Shown here in pieces: positions 10,342-36,883 of a stretch of 64,000 nt of DNA (within the stretch, counting starts at the first letter, position 1; each line of letters starts with the position of its first letter). The DNA comes from Candidatus Methanomethylicus oleisabuli (lineage in GTDB: Archaea; Thermoproteota; Methanomethylicia; Methanomethylicales; Methanomethylicaceae): the NCBI GenBank assembly GCA_001717025.1, contig MAGU01000068.1:307-64306 (forward strand). Reading direction: 5' to 3'. Both the position numbers and the translations under genes were made by a program. Below the pieces are notes generated by a model. That model was not told the origin of the DNA. It saw nothing but the letters and a program-made list of their open reading frames with translations, and made no database searches.

Positions 10342-13053
10342 GTGTTTCAAATGTCAAACAGAACAATATCGCTAGAGGTTGCTGAACTCAACCCCTATTA
10401 TGCCCATAGGGGGCTCGCGTTCATCAACCCGCGGGTCATGCAGAGGCTTGGTCTATCTCCTGGCGATTTCATCAAGATCACAGGCAAGCGGCAGACTGTT
10501 GCAAAGGTCTGGTCAATGGACGACGACTATGAAAATGAGGATATGATAGGGATAGACGGTGTCATACGCTACAACGCGCAGACATCTATACAAGACACGG
10601 TTACCGTCTCAAAGGTAGACCCTAAACCCGCGTCGAAGATCGTGCTCTCGCCAGCAGAGCCTATGGCAATAAGCCCTGCAATGGCATCATATATCGGAGA
10701 AAAGATCGTGGACTATGCCTTCTGTTCCAACGACCTCGTATCCGTGCCGCAGCTCACCAGCGTGCTGCTCTTCAGGGTGGCTTCTGTTAGCCCCTCGTCT
10801 CCAGCCTTGGTGGTTGAGGAAACTAAGGTAGAAGTTAAGGAGGTGGAGGAAAAGGCGCCAGAAGCCAAGACCGCCGGTAGGGCCACTGGTGTAACCTACG
10901 AGGATATCGGTGGCTTGGGCGACGCCAAGGAGAAGATCCGCGAGATGATAGAGCTTCCGATGAAGCATCCTGAGCTCTTCAAGCGTCTTGGAATCGAGCC
11001 TCCGAAGGGAGTTCTGCTTCACGGTCCGCCAGGCACCGGCAAGACCCTCCTAGCAAAGGCTGTAGCAAATGAGTCTGGCGCAAACTTCGTCACGATCAAC
11101 GGGCCCGAGGTGATAAGCAAGTACTACGGCGAGTCCGAGGGCAAGCTGAGAGAGATCTTCGAGCAGGCGGAGAAGAACGCCCCTACTATAATATTCATAG
11201 ACGAGATCGACTCGCTAGCACCCAAACGCGAGGACATATCCGGCGAGGTGGAGCGCCGCGTTGTGGCGCAGCTCCTCACTCTTATGGACGGTCTTAAGGC
11301 ACGCGGGCAGGTTATCGTCATAGCGGCTACCAACCGTCCAGACGATGTGGACCTGGCGCTGCGCAGGCCAGGTCGCTTCGACCGCGAGATCCAGATTGCG
11401 ATACCTGATAAAAAGGGCAGGCTGGAGATCCTGCAGATACACACGCGCAATATGCCACTTACCCGCAACATCAACATAAGGCGGCTCATCGAGTCTGCAA
11501 AGAGCAGTGGCGGCAAGGCAAGCCAAACCATTGAAGGAGCAATGGACGGCGCCCTCCTCAGGGAACTATCCGATTACCTTGAACTGATCACCTCCTACGA
11601 CGTTAAACAGCTCGATACCTATGAGAAGATCATCCAGCTGGCCAAGCAGGACGCGATGCACAAGATCGACTTCGCAGGAGGCGTCGATAAGAGCAGGATC
11701 GCGAGCATAGCCAAGGAGATACCCCCCTCATCAATCTCCGATTTGAGGTATGCCTTAGAAAAGGCAAGTGGCGTAAGGCACCTGGTAGGGGTTACGGACG
11801 TTGCATCCTTCTCAAGGCGCTTGGACCAGGAATCCGCATCCACGATCGAGCTTGCGCTGGGCATAGGCAGGATCCCCTGCATAGACCGGATCGTCGACCT
11901 CGAGGCTGCATACTTGTCGGAGGGTGATGCCGAAGCCGATAACTCGAAGCTGCCGCTGTCGCAGATCGTGATGATGTCAAAGAACCTGGACCCCGAAAAG
12001 AGCGTGGACCTCGGGGAGTTGGCATCGCTTACTAATGGCTTCAGCGGCGCCGACCTTGCAGCGCTGTGCCGTGAGGCCGCAATGAAAGCCCTCAGGCGAT
12101 TTGTGCCAGGCATGAACCTCAACGAGGAGATCCCTGCCACTCTGCTTGCGTCGCTCAAGGTCTCTAAGAACGACTTCATGGACGCCCTCAAAGAGATAAC
12201 CCCCTCTGCGCTGAGGGAGGTCTACGTCGAGGTCCCGGAGGTGCACTGGAACGACATCGGTGGGCTGGACGACGTCAAGAGGCAGCTGAAAGAGATGGTT
12301 GAGTGGCCGATGAAGCAGCCCGAGCTCTTCGAACAGATGGGGATTCTCCCTCCAAAAGGAATCCTCCTCTACGGTCCGCCAGGCACCGGCAAGACCCTCC
12401 TAGCAAAGGCAGTGGCCACCGAGAGCTCTGCCAACTTCATAAGCGTCAAGGGTCCTGAGGTGCTAAGCAAATGGGTTGGGGAGTCTGAGAAGGCTGTGAG
12501 AGAGATCTTCAAGAAAGCAAGGCAGACCGCTCCGTGCATCGTCTTCTTCGATGAGATAGATTCGATAGCGCCACAGCGCGGAAACAGCAGCAGCGACTCC
12601 GGCGTCACAGAGCGCATGGTAAACCAGCTCCTCTCTGAGATGGACGGTCTAGTCTCTCTGAAGAGTGTAGTCGTTATTGCCGCTACCAACAGGCCAGACA
12701 TAGTTGACACAGCCCTGTTGCGCCCAGGCAGGTTCGACAGGAGCGTTTACATACCGTTGCCTGACAAAGCTGCTCGGCGGGAGATCTTCAGGGTTCACAC
12801 GCGCAAAATGCCAATTGCAAAGGACGTCGACTTTGGTCTGCTAGCAGAGAAGACCGAAGGCTACACCGGCGCCGACATAGAAGCCATATGCCGCGAGGCA
12901 GCGCTGGTAGCGCTGCGTGAGGAGATGCGCAAAAAGGACGTGACGATGAAGCACTTCGAAGCAGCCATGAAGTCCATAACTCCGAGCGTATCCGATGCTG
13001 ATCTGCGGCAGTATGACGTCATGAAGAAGACCCTCGGCAAGATGATCTCCTGA
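10342..13053 (+). CDS. cdc48: CDC48/VAT AAA+ ATPase (two AAA domains) with an atypical insertion of about 175 aa in the D1 lid
   Basis: Two Walker A sites [14 protein letters not shown], second-region homology, and an N-domain. Insert lies between IHTRNMPL and [18 protein letters not shown], about nt 11464-12003. Confidence 0.85.
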
Positions 13054-20244: not shown

Positions 20245-20748
20245 CTAACGCCTGTATCCCTTCATAAGCCTGAGGTAAGCCGCCGAAGTCTCTTCAATTC
20301 TCATGATGTCGCTCGCATTAGCCATTCTGACTACCTTTGCTGGAACGCCCATTGCTACTGACCTGTCGGGTATATTCTTGCCTTCAAGAACGAGCGCCGA
20401 GGCACCAACCATCGAATTGCTGCCGACCACAGCGCCGGTGAGAACCACCGCTCCCATGGCAACGAGCGAGCAGTCTCCTATCCTGCAACCATGTATGATG
20501 CAGCCATGTGCTATCGTCGTGCCTCGGCCAATCACTGTTGGAAAACCGGGATCTGTATGAACGAGTGCCCCGTCCTGCACGCTTGCCCCATCTTTGATTG
20601 TAATCCTCTCGATGTCTCCTCTGAGCACTGCACCTGGCCAAATGTTGGCATTATCGCCGATTATGACGTCTCCAATAATCACTGCAGCCTCGTGGACAAA
20701 CGCCTCTCTGCTTATTGATGGTACTTTGCCATCAATCTCCTGTATCAC
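20245..20748 (-). CDS. Gamma-class carbonic anhydrase / hexapeptide-repeat (LbH) protein
   Basis: Left-handed beta-helix hexapeptide repeats and His ligands typical of the gamma-CA/PaaY family. Confidence 0.75.
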   Translation of the reverse strand: MIQEIDGKVPSISREAFVHEAAVIIGDVIIGDNANIWPGAVLRGDIERITIKDGASVQDGALVHTDPGFPTVIGRGTTIAHGCIIHGCRIGDCSLVAMGAVVLTGAVVGSNSMVGASALVLEGKNIPDRSVAMGVPAKVVRMANASDIMRIEETSAAYLRLMKGYRR

Positions 20749-21218
20749 GTCATATCCTCCAGCACTACCCTGTCTATCTCCGCATCTATGATATACTTAA
20801 ATCCGAACTCCTCTGCCCATTCTGGTCGGCGCATGACTCCTTGGAAGAAGAATGCGACCACGAACTCGAGGTCACTTACCTTCAGCAACGCACCCCTCAA
20901 TATTTTTGGGTTTACAGCGGTCTTTGCCATTGCCAGCCCTCCTAGAAGGACGACGATTTCAAACTTTTCTGCAGCGATTGCGCCTCCAAGCTGGTAGCCA
21001 AAGCCCTCTAACATTGATATCTTCCTTATTTTACTCGTGTCTCCTCCAGCCATGAAGTATGGTTCCAAAGGAAGGTCCTTTATTGAATTGCACAAGAACT
21101 CTGCAAATGGCAGGCAGGTTGCGGGTGAGCCAACGAAGAGCAGCTTGGCAGGCTTGCCATAGTTTATCATTGCGCCTTTGAAGCACCTGCTCAACCCAAC
21201 GAGACCCTTCTCTAACAT
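20745..21218 (-). CDS. Conserved archaeal protein of unknown function
   Basis: The ORF runs to 21374 but the N-terminal start is uncertain. Candidates are 21374, 21263 and 21218; the ORF-track start at 21374 would overlap the divergent regulator ORF by 12 nt, so 21218 is reported. 4-nt overlap with the gamma-CA gene. Confidence 0.45.
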   Translation of the reverse strand: MLEKGLVGLSRCFKGAMINYGKPAKLLFVGSPATCLPFAEFLCNSIKDLPLEPYFMAGGDTSKIRKISMLEGFGYQLGGAIAAEKFEIVVLLGGLAMAKTAVNPKILRGALLKVSDLEFVVAFFFQGVMRRPEWAEEFGFKYIIDAEIDRVVLEDMT

Positions 21219-21374
21219 CTTCTCCACTGTTGGTCTTCTCCATACACGACTCCCTCCTGGCATTAATGAAACTTGTGCATTTCCCGTCGCCTCCGCACCA
21301 CTTAGTTTATGCCGTTCATGAAGTGACCGAAAAGGTGAAAATACCACGGCTCCATAGGTAAGATGAAAGTTCAA

Positions 21375-22004
21375 ATGACGCCATTAAAGCAATTCTTGGA
21401 GTATATAAATAAAAGCTCACAGCCAAGGGGGCCTATCCCTGCGTTTACCCCTGTGCACATCGTTACTGCAATTCTGATAATCGCCTCTGAGGGATCTATC
21501 GGGCGGATTGCCCTCTCTAAGCGTTTGAAGATTGGTGAGGGGTCTGTCAGGACGATAATCAAGAAACTGCTCGAAAAGGACGTGATAGCAGTAGACTCGA
21601 TTGGAGGCTGCAATCTGACAGTTACAGGCGCAGGCATTGCAACCGAGCTGAAACGATTGTTGGTGAAACGCGTCCCGTTTGATCTTACCGAGATGGGCAT
21701 CACTCTGCCTTCATACGCAATTCATGTCAGATCGGACGTGGCTAAAATGCCCCTGACCAAACTTAGGGATATGGCAGTTAAGAACGGCACTGACGGTCTT
21801 GTCGTCTTTTCTTACCGCAGTGGTCGGCTTACCCTGCCCCTGTTGACCGACGACGTCTATAAAGTATACCCAAAACTAGCAGCTTCTTTTGACGAGTCGT
21901 TCAGACTGATAGAGGGGGATTCTGTCATTGTTGGCTTCTCAAGCGAAGCAATTCGTGCCGAAGAGGGCACACTTGCGGCAGCCTTGGCCGTGATTGATGC
22001 CTAA
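21375..22004 (+). CDS. Putative transcriptional regulator with an N-terminal winged-HTH domain
   Basis: HTH-like N-terminus (SIGRIALSKRLKIGEGSVRTIIKKLLEKDVI) plus a C-terminal domain of unknown function. The start could be 21363. Confidence 0.45.
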   Translation: MTPLKQFLEYINKSSQPRGPIPAFTPVHIVTAILIIASEGSIGRIALSKRLKIGEGSVRTIIKKLLEKDVIAVDSIGGCNLTVTGAGIATELKRLLVKRVPFDLTEMGITLPSYAIHVRSDVAKMPLTKLRDMAVKNGTDGLVVFSYRSGRLTLPLLTDDVYKVYPKLAASFDESFRLIEGDSVIVGFSSEAIRAEEGTLAAALAVIDA

Positions 22005-22062
22005 TTGTATGCATAAATCATATATTTACGGCACCATAATTGGAGTAGGGCGCATTTAATCT

Positions 22063-23034
22063 ATGAAAAAATCCCTTGTCGTGTTCGGAATTTTCCTTAT
22101 TGTAATCGTGGGCGTAGCAGGTCTTTACGTGTCTGGCTTCTTCAATAAATCGTCAGCGATCGAGATCAGGATGGGGTGCTTGGATAATGACTTGCACCAG
22201 CTAGCTCTGCACGTCGCTATAGCCAATGATTACTTTGAGCAGAATGGGATCAATATCAAACTTTTAAGCTACGACAGCGGTCCACGCCTTATGCAGAGCT
22301 TCGTGGCTGGAGACTTGGATTTTGCTTACGTGGGCGCACCTCCAGCAATCAATGGTCGTGCGGCAGCTCTTTCTGGCACGAATTCGAACGTCCCAGTGAT
22401 TGTCGCCTCGGTCAACCTGGAGGGCTCGTCTCTGGTGACCCGTAGCGGGATCTCTTCGATTAGCGACCTTAACAACACCATAATAGGAACGCCGGGCACC
22501 GGGACCATTCAAGACATACTTTTATCCAATTTCATACGGAACAACAGCCTGACCGTCACAAAAAGTCCAGCCTCCATCTCGACCCTCCCCATACTCCTCA
22601 GTAATGGTGAGATAGATGGGTTCATCGCATGGGAACCCGTGCCATCTGTTGCAGTCAACCGGTCCGCTGCGCAAGTTCTTTTGACCTCACACGACCTTAT
22701 GCCAAACCATCAATGCTGCGTTCTAGTCGCCTCAAGCAAAATCATAGCCGCCGATCCTGATACCGTTACTAAGATCGTTCAGATACACAAGAATGCCACT
22801 GACTACATCAATTCGAATGCCGCCTCAGCCAAGGTCATTGCAGCTGACTATACTGCGCTCTCGCAGCCCGTTATCGATATAGCCTTTAGCCACGTGGAAT
22901 ACAACTACACACTCAATGTTGACAGCATAAAAACATTCCTTTTACAGATGATACAGCTAGGAACTGTCACCTCAATCAACGCATCCCAAGTAGACTCCTT
23001 CATAGACGCTTTTATTGACACGAGCTACGGCTAG
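22063..23034 (+). CDS. ABC transporter substrate-binding protein, NitT/TauT (SsuA/NMT1-like) family, membrane-anchored
   Basis: N-terminal TM/signal anchor and periplasmic binding fold similar to sulfonate/nitrate/bicarbonate SBPs. Confidence 0.65.
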   Translation: MKKSLVVFGIFLIVIVGVAGLYVSGFFNKSSAIEIRMGCLDNDLHQLALHVAIANDYFEQNGINIKLLSYDSGPRLMQSFVAGDLDFAYVGAPPAINGRAAALSGTNSNVPVIVASVNLEGSSLVTRSGISSISDLNNTIIGTPGTGTIQDILLSNFIRNNSLTVTKSPASISTLPILLSNGEIDGFIAWEPVPSVAVNRSAAQVLLTSHDLMPNHQCCVLVASSKIIAADPDTVTKIVQIHKNATDYINSNAASAKVIAADYTALSQPVIDIAFSHVEYNYTLNVDSIKTFLLQMIQLGTVTSINASQVDSFIDAFIDTSYG

Positions 23035-23054
23035 GACTATTGTGAAGTGATCAA

Positions 23055-23837
23055 ATGCCCAAGCTGGACCGGTTCCGGAGCACGCTTATAGGCGTCGCGT
23101 CTTTGGCGACATTCGTCATCATCTGGCAAGTGGTGACAATGGTAGCGAACTCGCCGTTTCTGCCAACACCCGTTCAGGTATTTGAGGCATTCATAAAGAT
23201 CAGCACAATTGGGGATATTGATGGCTATACCCTGTGGTGGCACATTGGATTTAGCCTTTACCGTGTTCTGCTAGGCTTTGCCGTCGCAATCGTAACCGCT
23301 GTCCCTCTCGGGATCTTGATGGGGGTCAAGCCCGTGGTGAAGAGCGTCGCATCACCAGTAACCGAGATCGTCCGTTTCATACCTCCTATCGCATGGATCC
23401 CCCTATCGATCATCTTGTTCAGTGGCATCAACAGATACATCTTCCTTCTTTGGATTGGCATCTTCTTCCCCATCCTCCTCGACACAATAGCAGGCGTCAA
23501 ACGCACATCCGAAACACAGGTCAATATGGCAAAAACCTTCGGCGCCGACAACAAAGCAATCATAAAGAAGATCATCTTTCCTAGCGCACTACCCGAGATT
23601 ATGAACGGTCTAAGGGTTGGCCTAGGTGTTGGGTGGATGTGCATTGTGGCAGCAGAGATGATGGGAGGGGAGCCAGTCGGGCTAGGGCGCCTAATCCTGA
23701 AATATGCAAACCTCCTCCAGATCGACGTTGTAGTTCTTGGGATGGTTGTAATAGGTTTGGTAGGGCTCGCTATGAATTACCTGATACTATCCGTCGAGCG
23801 CAGGCTCTTCAAATGGCGCGTGGAGATTAAAGCGTAG
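23055..23837 (+). CDS. ABC transporter permease (NitT/TauT family)
   Basis: 6-TM permease with EAA-like loop. Confidence 0.8.
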
Positions 23838-24601
23838 TGACCATTATGCCACCCTTGATAATTGCAAAAGGATTAAGTAAAAGCTTCTTCGCTGGTAAAG
23901 AGACGATAAGCGTTATTGACAATCTCGATCTCTCAATCGATGAGGGGCGATTCGCATGCATAGTCGGTCCATCTGGTTGCGGAAAGACGACCCTTCTAAA
24001 GATCCTTTGTGGGCTCGAAAAACCGACGGCTGGTAGCATGCTTATTCACGGTCAACCCCCAGACCCAAAGAAGCAGCGATTTGGGGTGATCTTCCAGGAG
24101 GACTCTTTGCTTCCTTGGCTCAACTTACTGAATAATGTAAAACTGGGGCTTGAGCTCTGCCATATCGACAATGCAGAGGAGATCGCGATCAAATACATAG
24201 ACCTTGTAGGTTTGGAAGGTTTTGAGAAGTACTTCCCCCATCAGATCTCTGGCGGGATGAAGAAACGTGTCGCTATCGCTAGGGCTCTGGCTGTAGACCC
24301 TGAGATAATACTCATGGACGAGCCATTTGCCGATTTAGACGCGCAGACTCGATCTATGATGCAGAAGGAGCTCCTCTCGATTTGGTCTAAACTTAACAAA
24401 ACCATCGCATTCATAACGCACAACGTAGATGAGGCCGTCTTCATCGGTCAGTCCGTATATGTACTGACTAAGCGCCCCACAAAGGTGAAGGCTACCGTAT
24501 CTATCGATATCGACCATCCGCGTTCTAGGCTAAGCCCACCATTCATATCATACCGGGAGAAGATCCTCGGCATGCTTCAGGAGGAGATAACTAGTCTGTG
24601 A
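23837..24601 (+). CDS. ABC transporter ATP-binding protein (NitT/TauT family)
   Basis: Walker [10 protein letters not shown], signature [12 protein letters not shown], Walker B ILMDEP. Confidence 0.85.
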
Positions 24602-24611
24602 GCTGACCCAA

Positions 24612-25157
24612 ATGCAAGAAGAACATGATGTGTGTGCCGACCTCATAGCCTCAGCCTTAACATCTAACCAGGCATTCATAGGCTCTTTAAAGAGCATAAT
24701 GCGACAGAGGGGCTTGTCTATGAAAGACCTGAGTGATGGCTCAGGAATCCCCTTGAGCACCTTGAACAAGGCTATCTCTGAGGAGCGGGACCTTCGCCTC
24801 TCAACTCTGCGCCAGATCATTAATTACTTCAGGCCAAAATCAAATGTCCGCGAGAGCGATATTGTTGTGGGGCTGATCGCAGCAAGGTCATCGCTGGACA
24901 AGTTCTCCAAGCGAAACATCGAGTTCAACGGTAGGAGGGTGTCCGTCAAAGAGTATCCTGCGCCCGACATCGAAGGCGCAATAATAAGCGCTATCAGGGC
25001 CGAACGCGAAGTTGACGGCATCGTGTGCGCCTCAATTGTGGCTAGCATAATTGAGAAGTTCGTCACCTTGCCCATAATGGCCATCAATATTGATGAATCA
25101 AACATAATGGCTTCAATTTCTACATTAATCGAAAAAATTACGTCAAAATGCAAATGA
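24612..25157 (+). CDS. XRE-like HTH DNA-binding protein with a C-terminal uncharacterised domain (candidate mcr-proximal regulator)
   Basis: HTH segment GLSMKDLSDGSGIPLSTLNKAISEERDLRLSTLRQIINYF. Lies immediately upstream of mcrB on the same strand. Confidence 0.5.
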   Translation: MQEEHDVCADLIASALTSNQAFIGSLKSIMRQRGLSMKDLSDGSGIPLSTLNKAISEERDLRLSTLRQIINYFRPKSNVRESDIVVGLIAARSSLDKFSKRNIEFNGRRVSVKEYPAPDIEGAIISAIRAEREVDGIVCASIVASIIEKFVTLPIMAINIDESNIMASISTLIEKITSKCK

Positions 25158-25204
25158 CCCTTCATTTTATTAATCAGATTGCCATTCTTTTTACCGCTCA
25201 GTCA

Positions 25205-25224
25205 ATTGTTTCATATGAAACAAT
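25205..25224. promoter_or_regulatory. 20-bp perfect palindrome ATTGTTTCATATGAAACAAT in the mcrB upstream region (candidate operator)
   Basis: Perfect dyad symmetry, about 110 nt upstream of the mcrB ATG and just upstream of TATA-like boxes. Confidence 0.4.
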
Positions 25225-25234
25225 AACTACGTCC

Positions 25235-25295
25235 CACTCCTTTATTTTTTAATGCACCTTCTTGTATTTGTAAGCAATGTTTTAATATTTCCGCT
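25235..25295 (+). promoter_or_regulatory. Putative mcr promoter region (TATA-like TTTATTTTTTAA and TTTTAATATTT)
   Basis: AT-rich boxes 40-100 nt upstream of mcrB. The mcrB RBS GAGAGGAG sits 7 nt before the ATG. Confidence 0.35.
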
Positions 25296-25335
25296 AGGTT
25301 ATTTAGACCGCAACAAAACTCTAGAGAGGAGTCCT

Positions 25336-26670
25336 ATGGCGAAATATTCAGATAAAGTAGATCTATACGACGATCGAGGACGTGTTTTCGCCTCTAAGGT
25401 TCCTTTAGAGGCTTTGAGTCCATTGCAAAACCCAGCAATACAAAAAATTGTCTCTTTCGTGAAACAGTGCGTCTCCGTCAATCTAGAGGGCGTTGAGAAG
25501 TCTCTTGCGACTGGAGCAGTCGGTGGCAAGTCATGCATTATTAACGGAAGGTCTCTTAAATTGGACCTTGTTAAGAATGCAGGAAGCATTGCCGATACGA
25601 TTAAAAAGACTCTCCAGGTCTCGGCCGACGATGATACCGATGTAAAGGTCCTCAAGGGTGGGAAGCACCTTCTAGTGAGAGTCCCAGCCAAGAGGATGAA
25701 TGCCGGTGTCGAATATACCACAGGAGCAACCTCAACCGCAGCGGCCCTCTGTTGTGCTATTGTCGACAACTTCAATGTTGGCATCTGGGATGCGGACTTA
25801 GTTCATGCCTCTGTTTGGGGTAGATACCCTCAGACAATGGAAATGCTAGGCGGAAACGTGTCTTCGTTACTATCCGTTCCACAGCAGAATGAAGGTATGG
25901 GATACGCTCTTAGGAACGTTCCTTGCGCACACATTGCCTTGATTACAAGGAAGAATGCCATGAACGCTGCAGCCCTTTCCTCAATAATGGAACAGGCTGC
26001 GATGTTTGAGATGGGCGATGCTATTGGCGACTTCGAGAGGCTCCATATTCTGGGCCTTGCCTACCAGGGGTTGAACGCAAACAACTTGGTATATGATATC
26101 GTCAAAGCGAATTCAAAGACCGGCACTCTGGGCGATGTAGTTATATCCACTGTGAAGAGGGCAATTGACGATGGCGTAATCAAGCCACTTGCAAAGGCGC
26201 CATCTGGCTACATAAACTACACGACTGACGACCTCAACAAATGGAACGCATATGCCTCAGCGGGTCTTCTTGCCGGAACAATGGTGACTTGTGGTGCAGC
26301 AAGATCAATGCAGCATACACCATCTGTATTCATCTACTTCAACGACCTAATCGAAAGGGAGACGAGCCTGCCAGGTGTGGACTTTGGCAGAGTTGAAGGT
26401 ACAGGTGTTGAGATGGCCTTCTTCAGCCATTCTATATATGGCGGAGGCAACCCTGCCGTATTTGCCGGCAACCATATCGTGACAAGGCACAGCAAGGGCT
26501 TCACGATACCGTGCGTCGCGGCAGCAGTAGCTCTTGACGCTGGAACAACCATCTACACACCAGAGAAGATCTCTGGCACGATTGGTGAGGTGCTGAGTGA
26601 AGTAGCCGAGCTAAGGGAGCCTCTGAAGTATGTCAATGAGGCCGCAGTAGCAATCAAGGGAGGAGTCTAA
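25336..26670 (+). CDS. mcrB: Methyl-coenzyme M reductase beta subunit
   Basis: Full-length McrB-like sequence of about 445 aa from [15 protein letters not shown] with a strong SD. The longer track ORF from 25252 is unlikely. Confidence 0.93.
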
Positions 26671-26671
26671 A

Positions 26672-27448
26672 ATGGCAACTTACAAACCACAATTATATCC
26701 TGGAAACTCAAAGGTTGCCGCTAACCGAAAGAAGTACATGGATCCATCCTATAAGCTCGAGAAGCTAAGGACCGTCAGCGATGACGATATTGTGAGACTC
26801 ATGGGCCATAGAGTCCCAGGAGAGGCTTACAAGAGCGTCCACCCGCCTCTTGAGGAGATGGGTGAGCCGTCTTGCCCTATCCGAGAGCTTGTAGAAGCGA
26901 CACCCGGCGCTAAGGCTGGTGACAGGATAAGGTACATACAAATGACCGACTCCGTCTACTTCACGCCGTTGACCCCATACATGAGGGCATGGTCAGGGCA
27001 TACAAGGTACCGTGGCGTAGACATCGGCGTACTCTCAGGAAGAGTTCCACTTGAAGCGAGGGAAAGGGATCTTGAGAAGGTTGCCAAGGAGCTTGTAGAA
27101 ACTGAAATCTTCGATCCTGCAAGGTGTGGGATTAGGGGCGCGACCGTCCACGGCCACTCTCTGAGGCTCGACGAGAACGGTCTGATGTTCGATGCACTCC
27201 GCAGGTTCCAGTTTGACAAGAAGACTGGCGAAGTAGTCTATGTCAAGGACCAGATCGGCGTTCCTCTGGACAAGCCAATCTCAGTTGGTAAGCCAATAAA
27301 GGAAGAAGAGCTCAGAAAGAGGACAAGCGAGTATAGAGTCGAAGATGTAGCCTTCAGGACCGACAAGGAAGTCATTAACTTCATCGAGCGGCTCCATATG
27401 CTCAGGACGGAGGCAGGCTTTGATCCGAACAGGGTCAAGGGTATCTAA
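26672..27448 (+). CDS. mcrG: Methyl-coenzyme M reductase gamma subunit
   Basis: 258-aa McrG-like sequence. SD GGGAGGAG is embedded in the mcrB 3' end. Confidence 0.93.
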
Positions 27449-27462
27449 GGAGGTAGCATGAA

Positions 27463-29133
27463 ATGAGCTCAGAGAATAAAATGTTCATAGAAGCGCTTCG
27501 CAAGAAATTCAAAGAAGCGCCAGAGGACAAGAACACGAAATACTACATCTACGATGGCTGGAAGCAGTCGAAGAGGAAGAGAGAGTTTGTAGAAGCTGCC
27601 AAGAAGGTTGCAAAGGAGAGGTCGATCCCATTCTACAACCCTGATATGCACCTCGGTGGAATACCGATGGGGCAGAGGGTACTGATGCCCTACAGAATTT
27701 CCAACACCGACGTATACGTGGAGGGCGATGACCTGCACTTTGTCAACAACGCTGCTATGCAGCAGATGTGGCACGACATCAGGAGGACCGTAATCGTCGG
27801 TCTAGACTCTGCCCACACCGTGTTGCAGAAGCGTCTTGGCAAGGAAGTGACTCCGGAGACAGTCAATCACTACCTAGAAGTGCTGAACCACGCACTCCCG
27901 GGCGCCGCAGTCATCCAAGAGCATATGGTTGAAACCAACCCAGGTCTAGTGTCTGATAGCTACGTCAAGGTCTTCACCGGCGACGACGAACTGGCCGATG
28001 AGATTGACCCGCGCATGCTGATCAACATCAACAAGGAATTCCCTGCAGACCAAGCGGCATCCCTCAAGAAGGCTATCGGCAATAAGATCTACCAAGTGCT
28101 GCACATGCCAACAATTGTCTCAATGACCTGCGATGGTGGGACCATGTCAAGGTGGGCCGCTATGCAGATCTCCATGTCCATGGTGAACACCTACAAGCTG
28201 ATGGCAGGTGAAGCCGCTATCGGCGAGTTCGCGTTCGCGGCAAAGCACGCTGAAGTCATCGAGATGGGAACACTCATGCCATGGCGGCGCGCTAGGGGTC
28301 CAAACGAGCCTGGCGGCATACCTCTTGGATACATGGCGGATATATGCCAAGGATCGAGGGTAAAGCCAGAAGACCCTGTTTGGGTTGCGCTTGAGTCAAT
28401 CTCAATGGCAGCGTTGCTGTATGACCAGATCTACTTCGGCAGCTATATGTCAGGCGGCGTAGGATTCACGCAGTATGCAACATGCACATACACCGACAAC
28501 GTCCTAGACGACTTCTGCTACTACGGCGCAGACTACGTCAAGAAGAAATACGGCGGCTTTGCAAAGACCAAGCCAAGCTGGGACCTGATCAAGGACGTGG
28601 GAACTGAAGTAACGCTGTACGGCCTTGAGCAATATGAGAAGTACCCGGCGCTCATGGAGACCCACTTCGGCGGCTCACAGAGGGCAGCGGTGGTGTCTGC
28701 GGGCGCAGGTGTTGCGGTGTCTCTGGCTACAGGGCACTCGACCGCTGGCATCAACGCTTGGTATCTGAGCCAACTGCTCCACAAGGAGGCGATGGGAAGG
28801 CTTGGATTCTATGGCTATGACCAGCAGGACCAGTGCGGTTCAGTCAACAGCTTCTCATACAGGAGCGATGAGGGTCTGCCGTTCAACCTGAGGGGCGTCA
28901 ACTACCCCAACTATGCGCTCAACGTAGGTCACCAGTCTGCATACTGTGGCATCGTTTCTGCTGCGCATGGCGGAAGGAATGACGCTTGGACGACCAGCCC
29001 GCTCATCAAGGTGGCATTTGCCGACAAGGACCTGAAGTTCGACTTCACACACCCGAGGCTATGCTTCGCAAAAGGTGCGCTGAGGGAGTTCGTCCCAGCC
29101 GGCGAGAGGGACTTGATAATCCCGTCGCACTAA
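27463..29133 (+). CDS. mcrA: Methyl-coenzyme M reductase alpha subunit
   Basis: Canonical McrA motifs: AKHAEV (methyl-His site), [13 protein letters not shown] (methyl-Arg site), GFTQYA (methyl-Gln site), [12 protein letters not shown] (thio-Gly, didehydro-Asp and methyl-Cys positions at nt 28813-28836), and YxxxxGGSQR. Confidence 0.95.
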
Positions 29134-29137
29134 ACAC

Positions 29138-29162
29138 ACCTTTTTCTTTTTTTATTCATCTC
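29138..29162 (+). terminator. Oligo-T archaeal terminator after mcrA
   Basis: CCTTTTTCTTTTTTTATT immediately after the mcrA stop. Confidence 0.5.
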
Positions 29163-29175
29163 CAGCTGATTTCTA

Positions 29176-29789
29176 TGCCTCCAAGCAATGGTTTTGAGTC
29201 GCTATCAAGAATCTTGAACATTCTGAACGCTCTATCGTCACTTGAATCCGCCGCAGACGCAAGAGAGACTTACCCCGAGTTTCCAAATCTCGCTGAGCAC
29301 ATCGCTCAGCTCTTCCTAGAAGATCGCCTATTCGACATACTTCCAAGGCTAGAGACTCAGCGGGAGTTGGTGATGAAATGGCAACCCGCCGTTCGACCCG
29401 CTCTGGATCCCTACATATCCACCCAGATCGGCGTTCTATCAAAGAACTTCGATGACTACGAGACGGGGCACTTCTTAGATTATCCGGACTGTTGCATACG
29501 ATCCTTCAGCGAACGCATAAGATATGCGCTAGACGAATTGCATGAGAGAGAGCTGGCAGAACTTGGCAAAAGAGGCGGTTCAAAGCCTTACTTCGTCACG
29601 ACTTTCGGATTCGTCCCATGCAGCGTCTTATGCGAGGAGTCCCACAGCAGACACCTGATAGCCTTCGCCGAAGATAGTGAGGTGGATGCGATGAGGTCGC
29701 TCGAGGTCGAGATTGCACGCGCCCTTCCCCACTCTCATCCTGTATATCAGGGAAGTTACTACGAGATTAGGTCGACCCTATTGAGTTGA
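29176..29789 (+). CDS. Cys-containing hypothetical protein directly downstream of mcrA
   Basis: About 204 aa from MPPSNGFESL. Cys motifs DYPDCCIRSF and VPCSVLCEESH. The track ORF from 28986 overlaps mcrA in another frame. Confidence 0.45.
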
Positions 29790-31099: not shown

Positions 31100-32035
31100 T
31101 TGCATTTGGAATCTCTTGCTCAGGTGATCTCGGCGGCTAAGAACTATAAAGGTCTTAAAAGGAAACTCGAGATCGGTGAGATCATCCAAATCCTGGGGGA
31201 GTCTGATTACGATGACGCCGGCGTTCTTGATATGGGTGACCTTAAGATCGTTGTATCCGCTGATGGGATCACAGAAGACCTCGTAAAATCAGACCCGTGG
31301 TTTGCAGGCTACTACTCGGTACTGGTGAACGTCAACGATGTCGTTGTCAAGGGGGCAAAGCCGATGGGGTATGTCGACGTTATCTCCGGGTCCCCAGAAA
31401 CTAGGCGAAAGATGGCTGAGGGAATTAAGACAGGTCTGGAAAAATATGGTCTCAAGCTCCTCAAGGGTCACACGCATCCTGATTCTTCATACGAGGCGAT
31501 CGATGCCGCGGTCGTCGGTATCGCAAAGAGGGTTGCCAAAGGAACCGATGCAAGACCTGGCGATAAGCTGATAATGGCGATAGACCTCGAAGGGTCCTTC
31601 GGAACAAAGGGCTGGGTGAGGTGCTTCGACAGCACACTTCACCGCACCCGGGATGACCTGCAGCTAATGGTCTCGACAATAGTGGCTGCCATAGATAATG
31701 GGTACATCTCCTCATCGAGAGACATCAGCGCCCCTGGGATACTCGGCAGTTTAGCTATGCTCTGCGAGGCCAGCGGCGTCGGTGCCACAGTGGATTTGGA
31801 AACGATCCCCAAACCCCCTATGATATCGCTCTCTGACTGGCTCATCTCTTACCCTGCGATGGGCTTCATATTTGCCTCTAAAGACGTTGCCATCCTCGAG
31901 ACTCTGCGAGGCGTTGGCTTCTCTGCAGAAGTTGTGGGCAACTTCACCGAGTCGAAGCAGATTACAGTCTCGATGGGAAACGAAAAGGGCGTCTTTATGG
32001 ACCTAGCACTGGAGTCCGTTTTTGGACTGCGCTAG
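31100..32035 (+). CDS. AIR-synthase-related (PurM-like) protein, candidate methanogenesis marker protein 2
   Basis: PurM-like N-terminal DDAGVLDMGD motif. About 311 aa, matching Mmp2 size. TTG start. Sits between the mcr operon and the ycaO-tfuA-A2 operon. Confidence 0.5.
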   Translation: MHLESLAQVISAAKNYKGLKRKLEIGEIIQILGESDYDDAGVLDMGDLKIVVSADGITEDLVKSDPWFAGYYSVLVNVNDVVVKGAKPMGYVDVISGSPETRRKMAEGIKTGLEKYGLKLLKGHTHPDSSYEAIDAAVVGIAKRVAKGTDARPGDKLIMAIDLEGSFGTKGWVRCFDSTLHRTRDDLQLMVSTIVAAIDNGYISSSRDISAPGILGSLAMLCEASGVGATVDLETIPKPPMISLSDWLISYPAMGFIFASKDVAILETLRGVGFSAEVVGNFTESKQITVSMGNEKGVFMDLALESVFGLR

Positions 32036-33625
32036 CTCCTCCCTCTCCTCTGGCGTGAAGAACTTGATCACCTCTGCGGGGCTGCCCATCTTGGCTATCT
32101 TTCCTTCTCGCATGAGTATTGCCTCCTCACAGGTGTTCAACACGAATCCAAGATCATGAGAGACTATGATGAATGTCTGACCGAGTTCGTTTCTTGCGGT
32201 CTTTATAGAACGCGAAACGTCCTGTTGCGTTATCGGGTCCATTGTACCCGACGGCTCGTCTAAGATCACTATTATCGGCTCACGTATGAGCACCTGCGAC
32301 AGAGCAACGCGGTGCCTCTCCCCTTCGCTGAGCTCGTCCGGATACTTCTTGAGAGTTTCCTCTATTCCGCCCTCTTCAAAACCTGCTGCTGCGAGAACGT
32401 TGTGCGCTTTGAACTTGGCAAACTCGTCCGGCAACTCCAGACCTATCGCGTCGGTGAGGTTCTCAAGCACAGTCCTATAAGGGTAGAGCGTATACTCTTG
32501 GTGTAGCAACCCCATGTAAGGCGTGGCCCTGCCTCTGCCTAGCGGTCCGGGCTCAAGCATGTTGATCCACTCGTCTCCGATCTTCATCTCGATCCTTCCC
32601 GAGGTCGGCGCAGTCACCCCGCATATGGCTCTTGAGAGTGTTGTCTTCCCAGCGCCGCTCATACCAATTATTCCGAATATCTGCTTCTCCTTCACCTCGA
32701 AGCTCACGCCATCTAGCGCTTTAACAACGCCCTTGTCTATCGAGAAGTAATGCTTCTTAAGGTCAGATACTTTAAGAATCGCCTTTCCAGGCTCTTTAGG
32801 CGCCGGGATCTCCTCCGGATTTAGCCTGCTCATAAATTTTGCAACAACGCTCTTCGTGTCGCCCTCGGCATCTATCCTGCCATCTTCGAGCAGAACCGCT
32901 CTCTCGGAGATCGCCTCAATTGCCTCGGGGACATGCGATGTGACAAGAAGCGTTGTGCCCTTCTTCTTCACCTCATCTATCAAGATGCCGTATATCGCCT
33001 TCGCGTTTATTGGATCCAACGTCCCTGTTGGCGCGTCTGCGAGGAGCAAGACTGGGTTAACCGCTAGCTGCCTGCCGAGCACCACCCTCTGCTTCTCCCC
33101 GCCGCTAAGGTCCCGAGCCGTGTGGATAAGCCGGTTCGAAAGCCCCATGCTCTTGGCTATCTCTATTGCCCTCTTGTTTATGTCACTCTCCGGCACCCCG
33201 CTCTTGCTCAGCGCCTCTATGAGATTCTCATAAACAGTCATGCTTCCGTAAAGAGCAAAAGTCCTCTGGAACATTATTGATATTCTGTTCCTTAGTGCCT
33301 TAGCGTATGAATCGTTCCTCCAAAGGTCTACCTCCAGCAGCTCCATCTTACTATAACATCTTGGGCAGACCTTCCCCGCCTTGCTGGGCCCATCTATATG
33401 CTCACATTCCTTGCAAATCGCAATCCTATATGTGATCCTTCCAGACGAAGGGGCATAATCGGATATGCCCTTTAGCATCGACAAAAGTACGGTCTTGCCC
33501 GAGCCGCTCCTACCAATTATTCCAAGCCTCTCCCCCTCTCCTATGGTCAATGAGATGTTGCTGAGGACTTCCTTTGTGCCGAACTTCTTTGATACTCCGT
33601 CAATGATGATGAATGGCTCGCTCAT
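32003..33625 (-). CDS. atwA: MCR component A2-like ABC ATPase (two nucleotide-binding domains, no TMD) with a Cys4 zinc-ribbon insert in NBD1
   Basis: Two Walker A sites (GRSGSGKT, GMSGAGKT), two signatures (LSGGEKQR, LSEGERHR), and a CKEC...CPRC insert. Start MSEPFIIIDG. Confidence 0.65.
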   Translation of the reverse strand: MSEPFIIIDGVSKKFGTKEVLSNISLTIGEGERLGIIGRSGSGKTVLLSMLKGISDYAPSSGRITYRIAICKECEHIDGPSKAGKVCPRCYSKMELLEVDLWRNDSYAKALRNRISIMFQRTFALYGSMTVYENLIEALSKSGVPESDINKRAIEIAKSMGLSNRLIHTARDLSGGEKQRVVLGRQLAVNPVLLLADAPTGTLDPINAKAIYGILIDEVKKKGTTLLVTSHVPEAIEAISERAVLLEDGRIDAEGDTKSVVAKFMSRLNPEEIPAPKEPGKAILKVSDLKKHYFSIDKGVVKALDGVSFEVKEKQIFGIIGMSGAGKTTLSRAICGVTAPTSGRIEMKIGDEWINMLEPGPLGRGRATPYMGLLHQEYTLYPYRTVLENLTDAIGLELPDEFAKFKAHNVLAAAGFEEGGIEETLKKYPDELSEGERHRVALSQVLIREPIIVILDEPSGTMDPITQQDVSRSIKTARNELGQTFIIVSHDLGFVLNTCEEAILMREGKIAKMGSPAEVIKFFTPEEREELAQSKNGLQC

Positions 33626-33709
33626 ACGCACACCGCAGAACACTTTATCTTGAAAATCGTGATATATAAACAAACTGAATTGCTGTTGTTGGGGGGCAAT
33701 AAAGACGCA

Positions 33710-34399
33710 TTATCTTGTTTCATACACTTTATTCTTTAGACGCGCGCTAACATCCTTCAGCACCTCCATCGCATCGATGCGTTTTTGGTCGACATGCTTC
33801 TCAATCATTAGTGAAGCGATCGTTCGGCAACGATCAGGCGGCATTCCCGTGTGTAGCGCTCTCTGGCATATCCTCATGGGATTCCTGAACTGGAACGGCG
33901 TCTCGCTTGCTGCCTTCAAGAAAGATTCCTCCTCCTCCGGCGTTATCTCTCCTGAATTTGCGAGCCCTTCAAGCGTAGCCCTTATATTGACCATCGGCTC
34001 TGAGATCGGCGCTAGCGTCTCTGGGTGGAAGACCAGCGCAACCTCATCATCCGATGATATCTTTCCATCTTTATACCATCTGTATATCTTGCCAACGCCT
34101 ACCATTCCGTATGCGTCCATCTCTGCTGCCCTCAGTGCTCCCATGCTTGATCCGCCCACCACTACGACGCCTCTTTCGATAGCGTATTTTATCTCCCTGT
34201 GTGCCACCGCATTCCGCTGGTAGAAGACCCCATCAATTAGCCCTATTATCTCGAAACCTTCGTCTGTAGCCGAAACTATGTCTCCCCTGCCGGCTGGCGG
34301 ACGGAAGGTTGCAGATGGGAGTACCCTGATCGCCTCGGCTATGGGCGCGCTCGGCCCCAAGAAAATTACTGCCCTTCGACGGCGCTTAAGCAACCCCAC
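33710..34399 (-). CDS. tfuA: TfuA-like protein (partner of YcaO for McrA thioglycine formation)
   Basis: TfuA-domain sequence of about 229 aa immediately downstream of ycaO. Confidence 0.75.
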   Translation of the reverse strand: MGLLKRRRRAVIFLGPSAPIAEAIRVLPSATFRPPAGRGDIVSATDEGFEIIGLIDGVFYQRNAVAHREIKYAIERGVVVVGGSSMGALRAAEMDAYGMVGVGKIYRWYKDGKISSDDEVALVFHPETLAPISEPMVNIRATLEGLANSGEITPEEEESFLKAASETPFQFRNPMRICQRALHTGMPPDRCRTIASLMIEKHVDQKRIDAMEVLKDVSARLKNKVYETR

Positions 34400-34408
34400 T
34401 CACCTTAG

Positions 34409-35644
34409 CTACTGGCTATGCCCCCTCAGCCTCTTGCCGGCTCTTTCTTTATCCATGGCATATACCTCTAAACCCGGAACTATTACCCTCACTGCGGGCA
34501 CCTCTGTCTCGGTCCGAGTTAAGTCTGCAACAACCACCTCGTCCAGTCCAACGGATGATAGCCTCCGAAGCGTGTATCTTATGTCGTTCAGGAAATCGCT
34601 GCTGTCGAATGTCGGCATCTCGTCTAACGATGCCTCCACTCCAGTCCCTTCAAACCACTTGCGATTGATGCGCTTCATCCTCTCGTAGCCCGCCCTTCTT
34701 GCGAAATCCGCCTTGTACGTGTCCTCTCTTGTGCCGTGTATTGTGGTTAGTCTGCTCTGGACGGCTTCCGTGAACGCCCGCAATGCCGCAATCTTGGGAT
34801 CTGGGTGCGTTCCAACTCCCAATGAAAGGAGGGCAGGGTCTCTTGTAGCTTCATCATCGAGTGCTACTGCGATGGTGGCTATTCCAATGTCGGATGTTAT
34901 GTCCTTCGCGTATGCCTTTACGCTTGCCCTACTCAGCCTGCCGACGATCTCGCCTATGGGGCCGTTCATTTCTGATCCTATGTTGAGGTCTCTGCCCTTT
35001 AGCGTGCCGTGCTCGAAGAGCGACCACGAATCCCTTTCTATGACTTCCATCAAGCCGTGGAGTATCGCCTCCTCGAAAAGATTGCCGACAGCAAGCCCGT
35101 TCGTGTTCGTCCTGAAGAGCTGGTTTTTGCGGCTGTAAGGATGAAAAACCGCCTCCGCTGGTACCAGTATCCAATGATCTTTACTGATCGAGAATCCCCT
35201 GAACCATTCTATCCTGTCAGAACTCTGGTAACTTACAGTCGCCGGCAATACGAGCCTCGTGGGATCGAGGACCGCGTCGCCCCCATTCTCGCATGCCCTC
35301 TGGAGCTCATCGTAGCTTCCGACCACGCACATGCCGCTCCTGGGCTCGGCGGAGAACCTCTCGATGCCCTCCATTATGGCTGAAACCTGCGCCTCCTCCT
35401 TCGTGAACCCCTTCCCAGCATAGACCGTTACTGCACCATCCGCGGCGCCGGGTCTTACCGATGTGAATACAGGTACGCCTATCCTGTCAAGCCCGGTGAT
35501 CTCCGCAACCCTGGTTATGCCTGCGTTAAGAAGGGCTCCCTGAACGTGCTCGAGTGTGGTCGCCGGTGAGGATGCGCGATGGGTATCCAGCAGGTAGCCC
35601 TTTGGGGCAGGTTTAAGAATCATTCGTAGTCCCACTGCAGCCAA
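34409..35644 (-). CDS. ycaO: YcaO-domain protein (methanogenesis marker protein 1; McrA Gly thioamidation)
   Basis: YcaO ATP-binding region (EGIERF... motif family). 411 aa. Paired with tfuA. Confidence 0.8.
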   Translation of the reverse strand: MAAVGLRMILKPAPKGYLLDTHRASSPATTLEHVQGALLNAGITRVAEITGLDRIGVPVFTSVRPGAADGAVTVYAGKGFTKEEAQVSAIMEGIERFSAEPRSGMCVVGSYDELQRACENGGDAVLDPTRLVLPATVSYQSSDRIEWFRGFSISKDHWILVPAEAVFHPYSRKNQLFRTNTNGLAVGNLFEEAILHGLMEVIERDSWSLFEHGTLKGRDLNIGSEMNGPIGEIVGRLSRASVKAYAKDITSDIGIATIAVALDDEATRDPALLSLGVGTHPDPKIAALRAFTEAVQSRLTTIHGTREDTYKADFARRAGYERMKRINRKWFEGTGVEASLDEMPTFDSSDFLNDIRYTLRRLSSVGLDEVVVADLTRTETEVPAVRVIVPGLEVYAMDKERAGKRLRGHSQ

Positions 35645-36883
35645 TCACTTTGACTCTTCGAGGTCTTTCATACCTGAGACCATTACCGCCGCCCCAACGC
35701 ATCCTATGAGGTTAGGCCTCTTGGGGACGATCATCTCAACGCTCAGGATCTCTGATAGCGCCTTTACAAGACCCTTGATCATCGCAGTTGAACCGACCTC
35801 AATGATGGGGTATCTTATGTCGATCTCCTGCAGTTGCTGCTCAAATACCTGCTCGGCAACGCTGTGGCACGCCGCGGCTGCCGCATCCTCCGTCTTGGCC
35901 CCCCCTGCGAGCCCTGCGACTAGGTCCTGCAGCCCGAAGACGATGCAGTACGCATTCATTGGCACTGCCTTATACTCCCCCTTCGCAGAAAGTTCGCTGA
36001 ACTCCTCCATAGATAGCCCCAGCCGCTTGGCGGTCGTCTCTAGGAACCTCCCAGAGGCGCCTGCACATGCTCCCCCAACCGTAAAGCTGTCCGGTATGCT
36101 ATCATAGAGCGTTACAGCCTTGTTGTCCATACCACCTATGTCTATGACCGTCGCGTCTCCCTTCTGCTTGTCCGTGAGGAAGAGCGCGCCCTTGGAGCAT
36201 GTCGATACCTCCTCCATTGCAAGCTGAGCCTTATACTTCTCCTTTAGTATGGTTCTCCCGTACCCAGTGACGCCCACCGCCTCCACCGCTTCCTCGCTCA
36301 GCCCCGCCTCCTTCAATGCTTGGTTCAATGCTGCGATGCCCGACTCAAGAACACCTGTTGTTGGAAACCAGCCCGAACCTAATATCTCGTTGTTCTTCAT
36401 CACAACCGCCTTCGTTGTCGTCGAGCCTGAGTCGATGCCGGCGGTTATCCCCTCCTGCTTAGTCCTTGCAAAGAGAGGTTTTTTGCCTATTATGTTTACA
36501 AGAGCCTCCATCCTCAGCAGGAGCGCACCTGCCTTAGACCTCTCAGTGAATGAGTATGATACGACCGGTATCTTCGACTGGCTTTGGATATATCTCCGGA
36601 TCACGCTCCTCACTAGCGCCCCCTCTGCGCATCTGAAGCAGCTCGCAATAAATACCCCATCAGCGTCAACCCTGCCCTCTACTATCGCCTTGGCCCTTGC
36701 CATCATCACCCTTAGCCCTGGGCTAGCCACGTGGAATCCTATCTCCTCCTCGGCGGCTCTTATCTCTGAAGCCTCGATCTCCGGCGTGAAGATGTTGCCA
36801 CCAACGATATGCGCTGCCTTCTCGATTTCGTTTTGAACACCGCTGTATTCTGAGCCGCATGAGATCTGCGCTATCCTGACCAT
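35645..36883 (-). CDS. BadF/BadG/BcrA/BcrD-type ATPase (ASKHA), candidate methanogenesis marker protein 15
   Basis: 412 aa. ASKHA motifs (GIDSGSTTTK, DIGGMD). First gene of the mmp15-ycaO-tfuA-A2 operon. Confidence 0.55.
   Translation of the reverse strand: MVRIAQISCGSEYSGVQNEIEKAAHIVGGNIFTPEIEASEIRAAEEEIGFHVASPGLRVMMARAKAIVEGRVDADGVFIASCFRCAEGALVRSVIRRYIQSQSKIPVVSYSFTERSKAGALLLRMEALVNIIGKKPLFARTKQEGITAGIDSGSTTTKAVVMKNNEILGSGWFPTTGVLESGIAALNQALKEAGLSEEAVEAVGVTGYGRTILKEKYKAQLAMEEVSTCSKGALFLTDKQKGDATVIDIGGMDNKAVTLYDSIPDSFTVGGACAGASGRFLETTAKRLGLSMEEFSELSAKGEYKAVPMNAYCIVFGLQDLVAGLAGGAKTEDAAAAACHSVAEQVFEQQLQEIDIRYPIIEVGSTAMIKGLVKALSEILSVEMIVPKRPNLIGCVGAAVMVSGMKDLEESK

Follow-up and report, generated by a model that had tools for sequence, protein, structure and literature searches.

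A lineage-restricted dyad upstream of the mcrBGA promoter of Candidatus Methanomethylicus oleisabuli and the transporter-linked regulator gene beside it

A 64,000-nt stretch of DNA from Candidatus Methanomethylicus oleisabuli (contig MAGU01000068.1; this whole 64-kb stretch is termed the window) was found to carry a perfect 20-bp palindrome in the spacer between a gene for a helix-turn-helix (HTH) protein and the operon mcrBGA. Comparison of related sequences suggests, with a probability of about 0.5, that this dyad is a conserved, lineage-restricted distal site of the mcr promoter at which a protein would bind. The palindrome of the window would then be the perfect, species-specific form of a dyad element of ~16 bp, TTYCAWATGAAAYRAT, acting at the DNA level, and a dimeric factor would most likely bind it and tune the recruitment of TBP and TFB to the very strong mcr promoter. 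The neighbouring HTH protein of 181 aa appears to be the product of the last gene of an SsuABC-like sulfonate importer operon, and its primary target is most likely the promoter of that operon, reached through TACAAT/ATTGTA boxes. MCR makes nearly all biological methane; to our knowledge very little has been established on the control of mcr genes, and nothing for the recently cultured methanogens of the Thermoproteota. The analysis yields a conserved and precisely positioned upstream element, a predicted core promoter mapped together with its leader, and a class-wide cluster which links an importer and two putative regulators to mcrBGA (Table 1).

Table 1. Coordinates of the dyad, the mcr promoter and operon, and the upstream genes in the window.
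Feature	Position	Strand	Details
Perfect 20-bp palindrome ATTGTTTCATATGAAACAAT	25205-25224	.	conserved core TTYCAWATGAAAYRAT at 25209-25224
Core mcr promoter	25273-25287	+	BRE-like (B recognition element) AGCAATG 25273-25279; TATA box TTTTAATA 25280-25287
mcrB leader GACCGCAACAAAACTCTAGAGAGGAGTCCT	25306-25335	+	highly conserved; ribosome-binding site GGAG 25328-25331
mcrB	25336-26670	+	Pfam MCR domains; NCBIfam equivalog TIGR03257 above cut-off
mcrG	26672-27448	+	Pfam MCR domains; NCBIfam equivalog TIGR03259 above cut-off
mcrA	27463-29133	+	Pfam MCR domains; NCBIfam equivalog TIGR03256 above cut-off
Conserved block CCCTTCATTTTATTAAT and T-run	25158-25192	+	directly after the HTH stop codon; block 25158-25174, T-run 25186-25192
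181-aa regulator	24612-25157	+	XRE/Cro-C1-type HTH (~aa 19-73) and C-terminal alpha/beta domain (~aa 84-180)
SsuABC-like ATP-binding cassette (ABC) importer	22063-24601	+	substrate-binding protein 22063-23034, permease 23055-23837, ATPase 23837-24601
Transporter operon promoter	22002-22027	+	TAA stop of the DUF4443 gene; ATTGTA box 22004-22009; TATA-like TAAATCATATAT 22014-22025
Second putative regulator (DUF4443 gene)	21363-22004	+	winged-helix PH0730-like_N and DUF4443 (Pfam); heads the cluster; syntenic in nearly all Methanomethylicia loci examined

The dyad was found exactly where the first-pass annotation of this DNA had placed it, in the 178-nt spacer which separates the end of the HTH open reading frame (ORF; 25157) from the mcrB ATG (25336), and it begins 47 nt past the HTH stop codon. 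The two arms of 10 nt match perfectly and the symmetry ends with them, as the flanking bases are A at both 25204 and 25225. The same annotation had called perfect 20-mers rare by chance, which is an overstatement, since perfect palindromes with arms of at least 10 nt were present in 19 of 300 dinucleotide-preserving shuffles of the window (6%). Perfection by itself is only mildly unusual and is weak evidence; the conservation of the element is the stronger evidence.

For this purpose the HTH-mcrB spacer was compared in 24 distinct lineages of the Methanomethylicia, from loci (L001-L032, L120-L122) collected by nine protein look-ups and a scan of species-representative genomes. In the species of the window (7 contigs) the dyad is perfect in all copies (20/20 positions) and is centred 121 nt from the mcrB ATG. 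Three other species of clade A (L001, L008, and L015), together with L120, match at 18/20 positions with a left arm of ATCGTTCCAT or ATTGTTCCAA and a centre at 121-122 nt. Clade B (L010 and L030) retains 15/20 and 14/20 positions in the form TTT(T)CAAATGAAACGAT, centred at 122 nt, with shuffle p-values of 0.008 and 0.066. The copy of clade C (L013, which equals L032) matches at 17/20 positions as TTTGTTTCAAATGAAATAAT, a score equalled in none of 2000 shuffles, and is centred at 102 nt, while L121 has a weak copy, CATATGAAAAAAG, centred at 122 nt. Across clades A and B, 13 of the 16 positions of the core are invariant, and the core is kept between lineages with HTH proteins only 54-62% identical; the spacer on either side of it has diverged and is barely or no longer alignable between these two clades. 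Variation within the species is uninformative here: the spacer of 178 nt has 5 variable sites, all outside the dyad, which chance alone would produce with a probability of ~0.55.

It might be argued that the dyad has no function of its own and is a lineage-specific palindrome kept by chance or shared ancestry. The frequency of such palindromes in shuffled sequence agrees with this, as does an element that is absent from most of the class and single in 64 kb, but we regard the proposal as improbable, given that the core has been retained between lineages so diverged in their HTH proteins and with a scrambled spacer, and at the same nucleotide distance from mcrB in those lineages.

Two irregularities were noted among the relatives carrying the dyad. 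In L030 (5001-5560) the HTH gene is frameshifted, its product ending at ~110-123 aa with the remainder readable in another frame, and the dyad is present; the frameshift may be an assembly error, an intact version (P0006) being available from another sample. In the contig of Ca. Methanomethylicus mesodigestus V1 (L014, ~5615-5635) an N and a 10-bp duplication, GGATATATANGGATATATATG, lie just past the dyad and are probably an assembly artefact.

The position of the dyad follows mcrB rather than the HTH gene. From the HTH stop codon the distance varies from 46-62 nt in clades A and B to 3 nt in clade C, in which the centre of the dyad is 19-20 bp (about two helical turns) nearer to the mcrB ATG. 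In nearly all lineages a TATA-like box, TTTTWAYA, has its start 54-59 nt before the mcrB ATG; in the F lineages, whose spacers are short, the distance is 41-42 nt. As it is otherwise constant in nearly all lineages, the dyad is placed relative to the promoter. In the window this cross-lineage TATA box, TTTTAATA, begins 56 nt past the end of the dyad (from 25224 to 25280), so that the dyad does lie upstream of the TATA-like sequence as first described, but not just upstream of it. A T-rich stretch nearer to the dyad (25243-25253) is kept in the closest relatives only.

The usual archaeal spacing between TATA box and start would put mcr transcription initiation near 25310. The dyad centre (25214.5) is then at approximately -95 from the predicted start, and it lies 69 bp upstream of the TATA centre (50 bp in clade C). 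Because the dyad is situated upstream of BRE/TATA and of the predicted start site, overlapping neither, a classical archaeal repressor operator is excluded. A location upstream of BRE/TATA, conserved relative to the promoter, is that of archaeal upstream regulatory sites, and the dyad would therefore be expected to belong among activating or modulating sites. Downstream of the core promoter, clades A and B, L005 and L121 share the leader GACCGCAACAAAACTCTAGAGAGGAGTCCT unchanged or nearly so, in spacers that are otherwise scrambled; its conservation exceeds what a ribosome-binding site alone would need.

Two other identities for the dyad were considered and dropped. A mini-ORF starting at an ATG within it (ATG AAA CAA TAA) does not keep its frame and length in relatives. 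A cluster of origin recognition boxes (ORB), considered for a presumed likeness of TTCCATATGAAAC to ORB sequences, was set aside, as the element is single in 64 kb and no orc1/cdc6 gene is nearby, the AAA gene at 10342-13053 being of CDC48 type.

A further possibility is that the dyad ends the upstream operon, either as an RNA hairpin or as a bound roadblock, and so terminates or insulates read-through into mcr. It follows the HTH stop codon by 47 nt and comes after the T-run at 25186-25192 (in clade C it follows the stop codon by only 3 nt), and the window copy can form a hairpin of 8 bp (z-score about -3). The hairpin is A/U-rich and weak, though, with -7.5 kcal/mol in the window versus -4.2 to -4.6 kcal/mol in L001, L010, and L013; on the sense strand the clade A copies have two C-A mismatches, and clades B and C retain just 4-7 weak pairs. 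No T-run is present downstream of the dyad at terminator distance, a terminator scan was negative at the dyad, which does not qualify as an intrinsic terminator, and its spacing is fixed to mcrB and not to the stop codon. No Rfam 15 match was obtained at E <= 1 on either strand of 24000-25600, and a conserved RNA structure at the dyad was rejected on the basis of this result and of the loss of the weak hairpin in relatives. Termination at the dyad is accordingly held to be very unlikely. The sequence immediately after the HTH stop codon (25158-25192) is itself a possible 3' end of the transporter/regulator operon, and the sequence CTTCAYTTTATTA there is conserved in clades A and B and L120. 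Read on the opposite strand, the block CCCTTCATTTTATTAAT is TTAATAAAATGAAG, which is TATA-like; the block could be either a 3'-end signal or an antisense promoter.

Several observations weigh against the dyad as a protein-binding site of the mcr promoter. Among the 24 lineages, six D lineages, three F lineages (where the HTH-mcrB spacer is just 60-74 nt), L005, L027 and L028 lack it, and with them most of the class, while L122 and L026, which resemble clade E, have only the non-significant TTGAAATAAT or TTGAAATAGT at 112-115 nt. The conservation in related genomes that had been proposed as a check was therefore seen in clades A, B, and C and in L120, and fails in most other Methanomethylicia. 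On a neighbour-joining tree of McrB the distribution is patchy, with A and B together sister to L005 and C sister to F. Since the dyad is missing from most of the class, mcr expression does not require it, and either repeated loss or convergence has to be invoked. A position of about -95 is also further upstream than most characterised archaeal activator sites. In the window no further copy of ATTGTTTCATATGAAACAAT was detected with up to 3 mismatches allowed, despite the presence of other MCR-related operons (atwA, ycaO-tfuA, marker 15, and marker 2). The search for a second copy covered marker 2 at 31100 and the marker 15-ycaO-tfuA-atwA operon ending at 36883, and upstream of these operons the 3-mismatch matches were at chance level only (9, including 2 self-matches, versus 4.45 expected); the suggestion that the same dyad would recur elsewhere was thus not borne out within the 64 kb. 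As a single copy, the dyad gives no visible regulon. Finally, the outer arms in the species of the window (ATTGT...ACAAT) are one mismatch per side from the TACAAT box, so the adjacent regulator could bind there.

The protein encoded next to the dyad is an HTH protein, as had been proposed, and the identification of mcrB, mcrG, and mcrA was likewise upheld by Pfam and NCBIfam; McrA belongs to a cluster at 90% identity whose sources carry the name Candidatus Methanomethylicus sp. Pfam HTH_3 matches aa 26-73 of the 181-aa protein with 30 bits (cut-off 23) and is also found in 32 of 46 members of the wider family, and a profile search of PDB sequences returned XRE-type HTH proteins only. In the AlphaFold2 model, helices 7-17, 19-32, 37-44, 48-56, and 63-73 form a compact helical DNA-binding fold, with a predicted local distance difference test score (pLDDT) of 85-91 in this part. 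The C-terminal domain, initially described as uncharacterised, resembles one lobe of the PrpR_N sensor fold and not the complete two-lobed fold. The regulator of the window has no match to PF06506 at E <= 0.01; its relative in L031 scores 31.4 bits (cut-off 29.1) over profile positions 13-71 of 167, and 20 of the 46 wider-family members match this profile.

Close homologues of the regulator form 24 clusters, all from Methanomethylicia. Within the class the recognition helix IP[LI]ST[LI]NK is nearly invariant. Every locus examined has the HTH gene as the immediate upstream neighbour of mcrB, in the same orientation, and identities to the window protein range between 46% and 76%. A profile search of 1.84 billion representative proteins yielded 174 relatives (representatives at 50% identity), of which ~60 are full-length at 165-195 aa, and a metagenome scan seeded with a 15-sequence alignment yielded more than 515 loci of the family. 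The nearest relatives outside the class, in L031 (Hecatellales, 41% identity) and L033 (38%), are divergent from an SsuA-type substrate-binding gene with no mcr nearby; the L031 locus also has permease and ATPase genes. Such a divergent pairing with an SsuA-type transporter was seen in ~23 of 80 metagenome loci and mcr in none of the 80. Other neighbours of the family include a set of pyridoxal phosphate (PLP) enzyme, ABC ATPase and CobW-like GTPase genes, HMG-CoA reductase, and NadA-like/DUF7714/Sua5 genes. Judged by these contexts, the family is seemingly one of general archaeal small-molecule-sensing regulators, its branch nearest to the window protein being tied to sulfonate-type importers. 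A large uncharacterised family of archaeal regulators is thereby defined, which joins an XRE-type HTH to half of a PrpR_N fold in ~170-190 aa and has a candidate DNA box.

This box, TACAAT/ATTGTA, was identified at the promoter of the transporter operon (Table 1), where clades A and B, L005, L021, and L026 share a conserved TAATTGTATRC with AAATCATATAT after it, the box abutting BRE/TATA; in clades C and F it is just downstream of the transporter TATA box. The spacer between the DUF4443 gene and the gene for the substrate-binding protein contains the box in 14 of 20 Methanomethylicia lineages, against ~0.055 expected per region. Outside the class, the 160 nt that precede the regulator gene were examined in 69 dereplicated loci; TACAAT/ATTGTA is present in 28 of them (~0.07 expected per region) and GTACAAT in 16 (~0.016 expected). 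By our own grouping these matches span about seven independent lineages, and in regions with a recognisable TATA box they usually coincide with the expected start site or lie close to it. The out-of-class loci have no DUF4443 gene, which makes the XRE/PrpR_N-like protein the better candidate binder of the box. The box tracks the regulator family and lies in the promoter region of the transporter, so that autoregulation of that operon would be the main task of this protein, and the neighbouring regulator most likely serves mainly the transporter. The regulator gene starts 10 nt after the ATPase stop codon and is therefore probably co-transcribed with the transporter genes. The boxes are often short palindromes (AATTGTATAC, GTACAATTGTAT, TGTACAATTGTG) at core promoters of the family (22004-22009 in the window; L024, L025, and L029; 4983-4994 in L031), and are a candidate operator.

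The first-pass annotation had favoured a dedicated mcr operator through which the adjacent regulator, or another dimeric factor, acts. The first element of this proposal is retained in part, for the conservation of the core and the fixed distance between its centre and the mcrB ATG are the behaviour of a cis-element tied to the mcr promoter, whereas the adjacent regulator as its dedicated binder is not. A model in which a dimer of the XRE/PrpR_N-like regulator occupies the dyad and governs transcription of mcrBGA, possibly sensing the ligand of the neighbouring transporter, draws on the place of its gene directly upstream of mcrB throughout the class. The outer arms ATTGT/ACAAT, one base off the family box in the species of the window, also agree with it. 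So do the boxes in the HTH-mcrB spacers of 6 of 21 lineages (a mild enrichment over the ~0.11 expected per region), and the spacer of L021, which is without the dyad of the window and carries two inverted TACAAT boxes that form a perfect palindrome of 16 bp, AATTGTATATACAATT, 12-27 nt past the HTH stop codon (~5551-5566). Among relatives, however, it is the inner TTYCAWATGAAA of the dyad that is conserved, and the outer arms decay to ATCGT, ATTTT, ACGAT, and ATAAT. The recognition helix is near-invariant, yet most lineages are without the dyad, and the HTH motifs of clade C, which has it, and of F, which does not, are almost identical. A tie between the dyad and Leu or Ile in the recognition helix (STLNK versus STINK) was sought and not found, as the F lineages and L021 have STLNK and no dyad.

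Binding of the dyad by a regulator dedicated to mcr is further opposed by the class-wide presence of that regulator beside a dyad of only partial distribution, by its place as the last cistron of a transporter operon, and by relatives outside the class which pair with transporters and never adjoin mcr. The box of the family is a different one and sits at the transporter promoter, and the dyad is in the wrong place for a repressor operator. Binding by the adjacent regulator is consequently considered unlikely, and the other half of the original wording, another dimeric factor, is what we favour for the dyad as a distal site of the mcr promoter. The L021 palindrome and the enrichment of boxes in mcr spacers indicate that the 181-aa regulator may have a secondary role near mcr.

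The importer genes match NMT1_2/NMT1, BPD_transp_1, and ABC_tran in Pfam. Their best NCBIfam matches are SsuA_fam (121.7 against a cut-off of 163.5), TauC (TauC/SaoP; 176.9 against 342), and the SaoA/taurine ATPase (209.4 against 360), all below the level for assignment to SsuABC or TauABC. The order DUF2124, DUF4443, transporter, HTH, mcrBGA, and DUF483 (20745-29789 in the window) was present in every Methanomethylicia locus retrieved, and this class-wide linkage of a transporter-regulator unit to mcrBGA is itself notable. The operon consists of mcrBGA without mcrC or mcrD. A conserved sequence upstream of the DUF4443 gene, ACCGAAAAGGTGAAAATACC at 21326-21345, is found in nearly all lineages and is probably the core promoter of that gene.

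The sulfonate-type importer next to MCR suggests that coenzyme M (CoM) or a related compound is taken up. In Methanosarcina acetivorans an SsuABC-type system has been described as a CoM-specific importer, and ssuA and ssuC are induced on CoM starvation (PMC12068725); the medium for the isolate Methanosuratincola petrocarbonis contains CoM (PMC12244365). A cofactor-linked function for the linkage between transporter, regulator, and mcrBGA seems a reasonable idea, and if the transporter does import CoM, the cluster bears on the cofactor dependence and the cultivation of these organisms. A more far-reaching proposal would make the importer, the XRE/PrpR_N-like sensor-regulator, and mcrBGA one class-wide unit, in which the regulator senses CoM or a related sulfonate or thiol and couples expression of transporter and MCR to cofactor supply through TACAAT boxes and, in Methanomethylicus, the distal dyad. 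We consider this a speculative and improbable scheme; if true, it would provide the first dedicated ligand-responsive regulator of MCR, in methanogens outside the Euryarchaeota.

Further genes of note lie elsewhere in the window. A cluster for MCR maturation and activation at 31100-36883 comprises a marker 2-like AIR-synthase-related gene (31100-32035, below the NCBIfam cut-off), component A2 atwA (32003-33673, minus strand), tfuA (33710-34399), ycaO (34409-35644), and methanogenesis marker 15 (35645-36883). A second double-ABC ATPase (48215-49891), component A2-like but below the cut-off, comes after a RACo-type corrinoid activation protein (46330-48270, minus strand).

The searchable literature yielded no account of this regulator, of the dyad, or of the mcr promoter in Methanomethylicia/Verstraetearchaeota. 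IMP-dehydrogenase-related protein VII is among the few proteins for which binding to an mcr promoter has been reported, in its case that of Methanothermobacter thermautotrophicus; it represents a different phylum and an unrelated protein family, and it is not known to have any link with the dyad. The importer of the window resembles SsuABC of M. acetivorans in its best matches (SsuA_fam, TauC, and SaoA) and in adjoining genes of a CoM-using enzyme, but it scores below the curated cut-offs and the likeness is one of family matches only. Compared with the N-terminal sensor of PrpR (PF06506; PDB 2pju and 2q5c), only about half of the two-lobed domain is present in the regulator. In the regulator this half is fused to an N-terminal XRE-type HTH, whereas PrpR has an AAA+ sigma-54 activator module and a C-terminal Fis-type HTH.

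According to the summary in PMC6737238, the HTH regulator TrpY of M. thermautotrophicus recognises boxes within divergent promoters that overlap, repressing both its own gene and the operon next to it. A similar logic is proposed for the XRE/PrpR_N-like family, which would combine short boxes at the core promoter of its own transcription unit with a ligand-sensing domain, the comparison being by description only. TrpY is divergently transcribed, whereas the Methanomethylicia regulator is the last gene of its presumed target operon. For the dyad itself, the closest parallel considered is the site TGGACA-N8-TGTCCA, bound upstream of BRE/TATA by Tar (TK0271) of Thermococcus kodakarensis (PMC6737238). 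The two sites differ in that their sequences are unrelated, the dyad is more distant from the TATA box (69 bp between centres), and no second site or regulon was found for it. They are alike in being dyad-symmetric, in lying upstream of the BRE/TATA of a strongly expressed operon without overlapping it, and in a position conserved relative to the promoter. The sites of Ptr2 and EarA are likewise comparable to the dyad.

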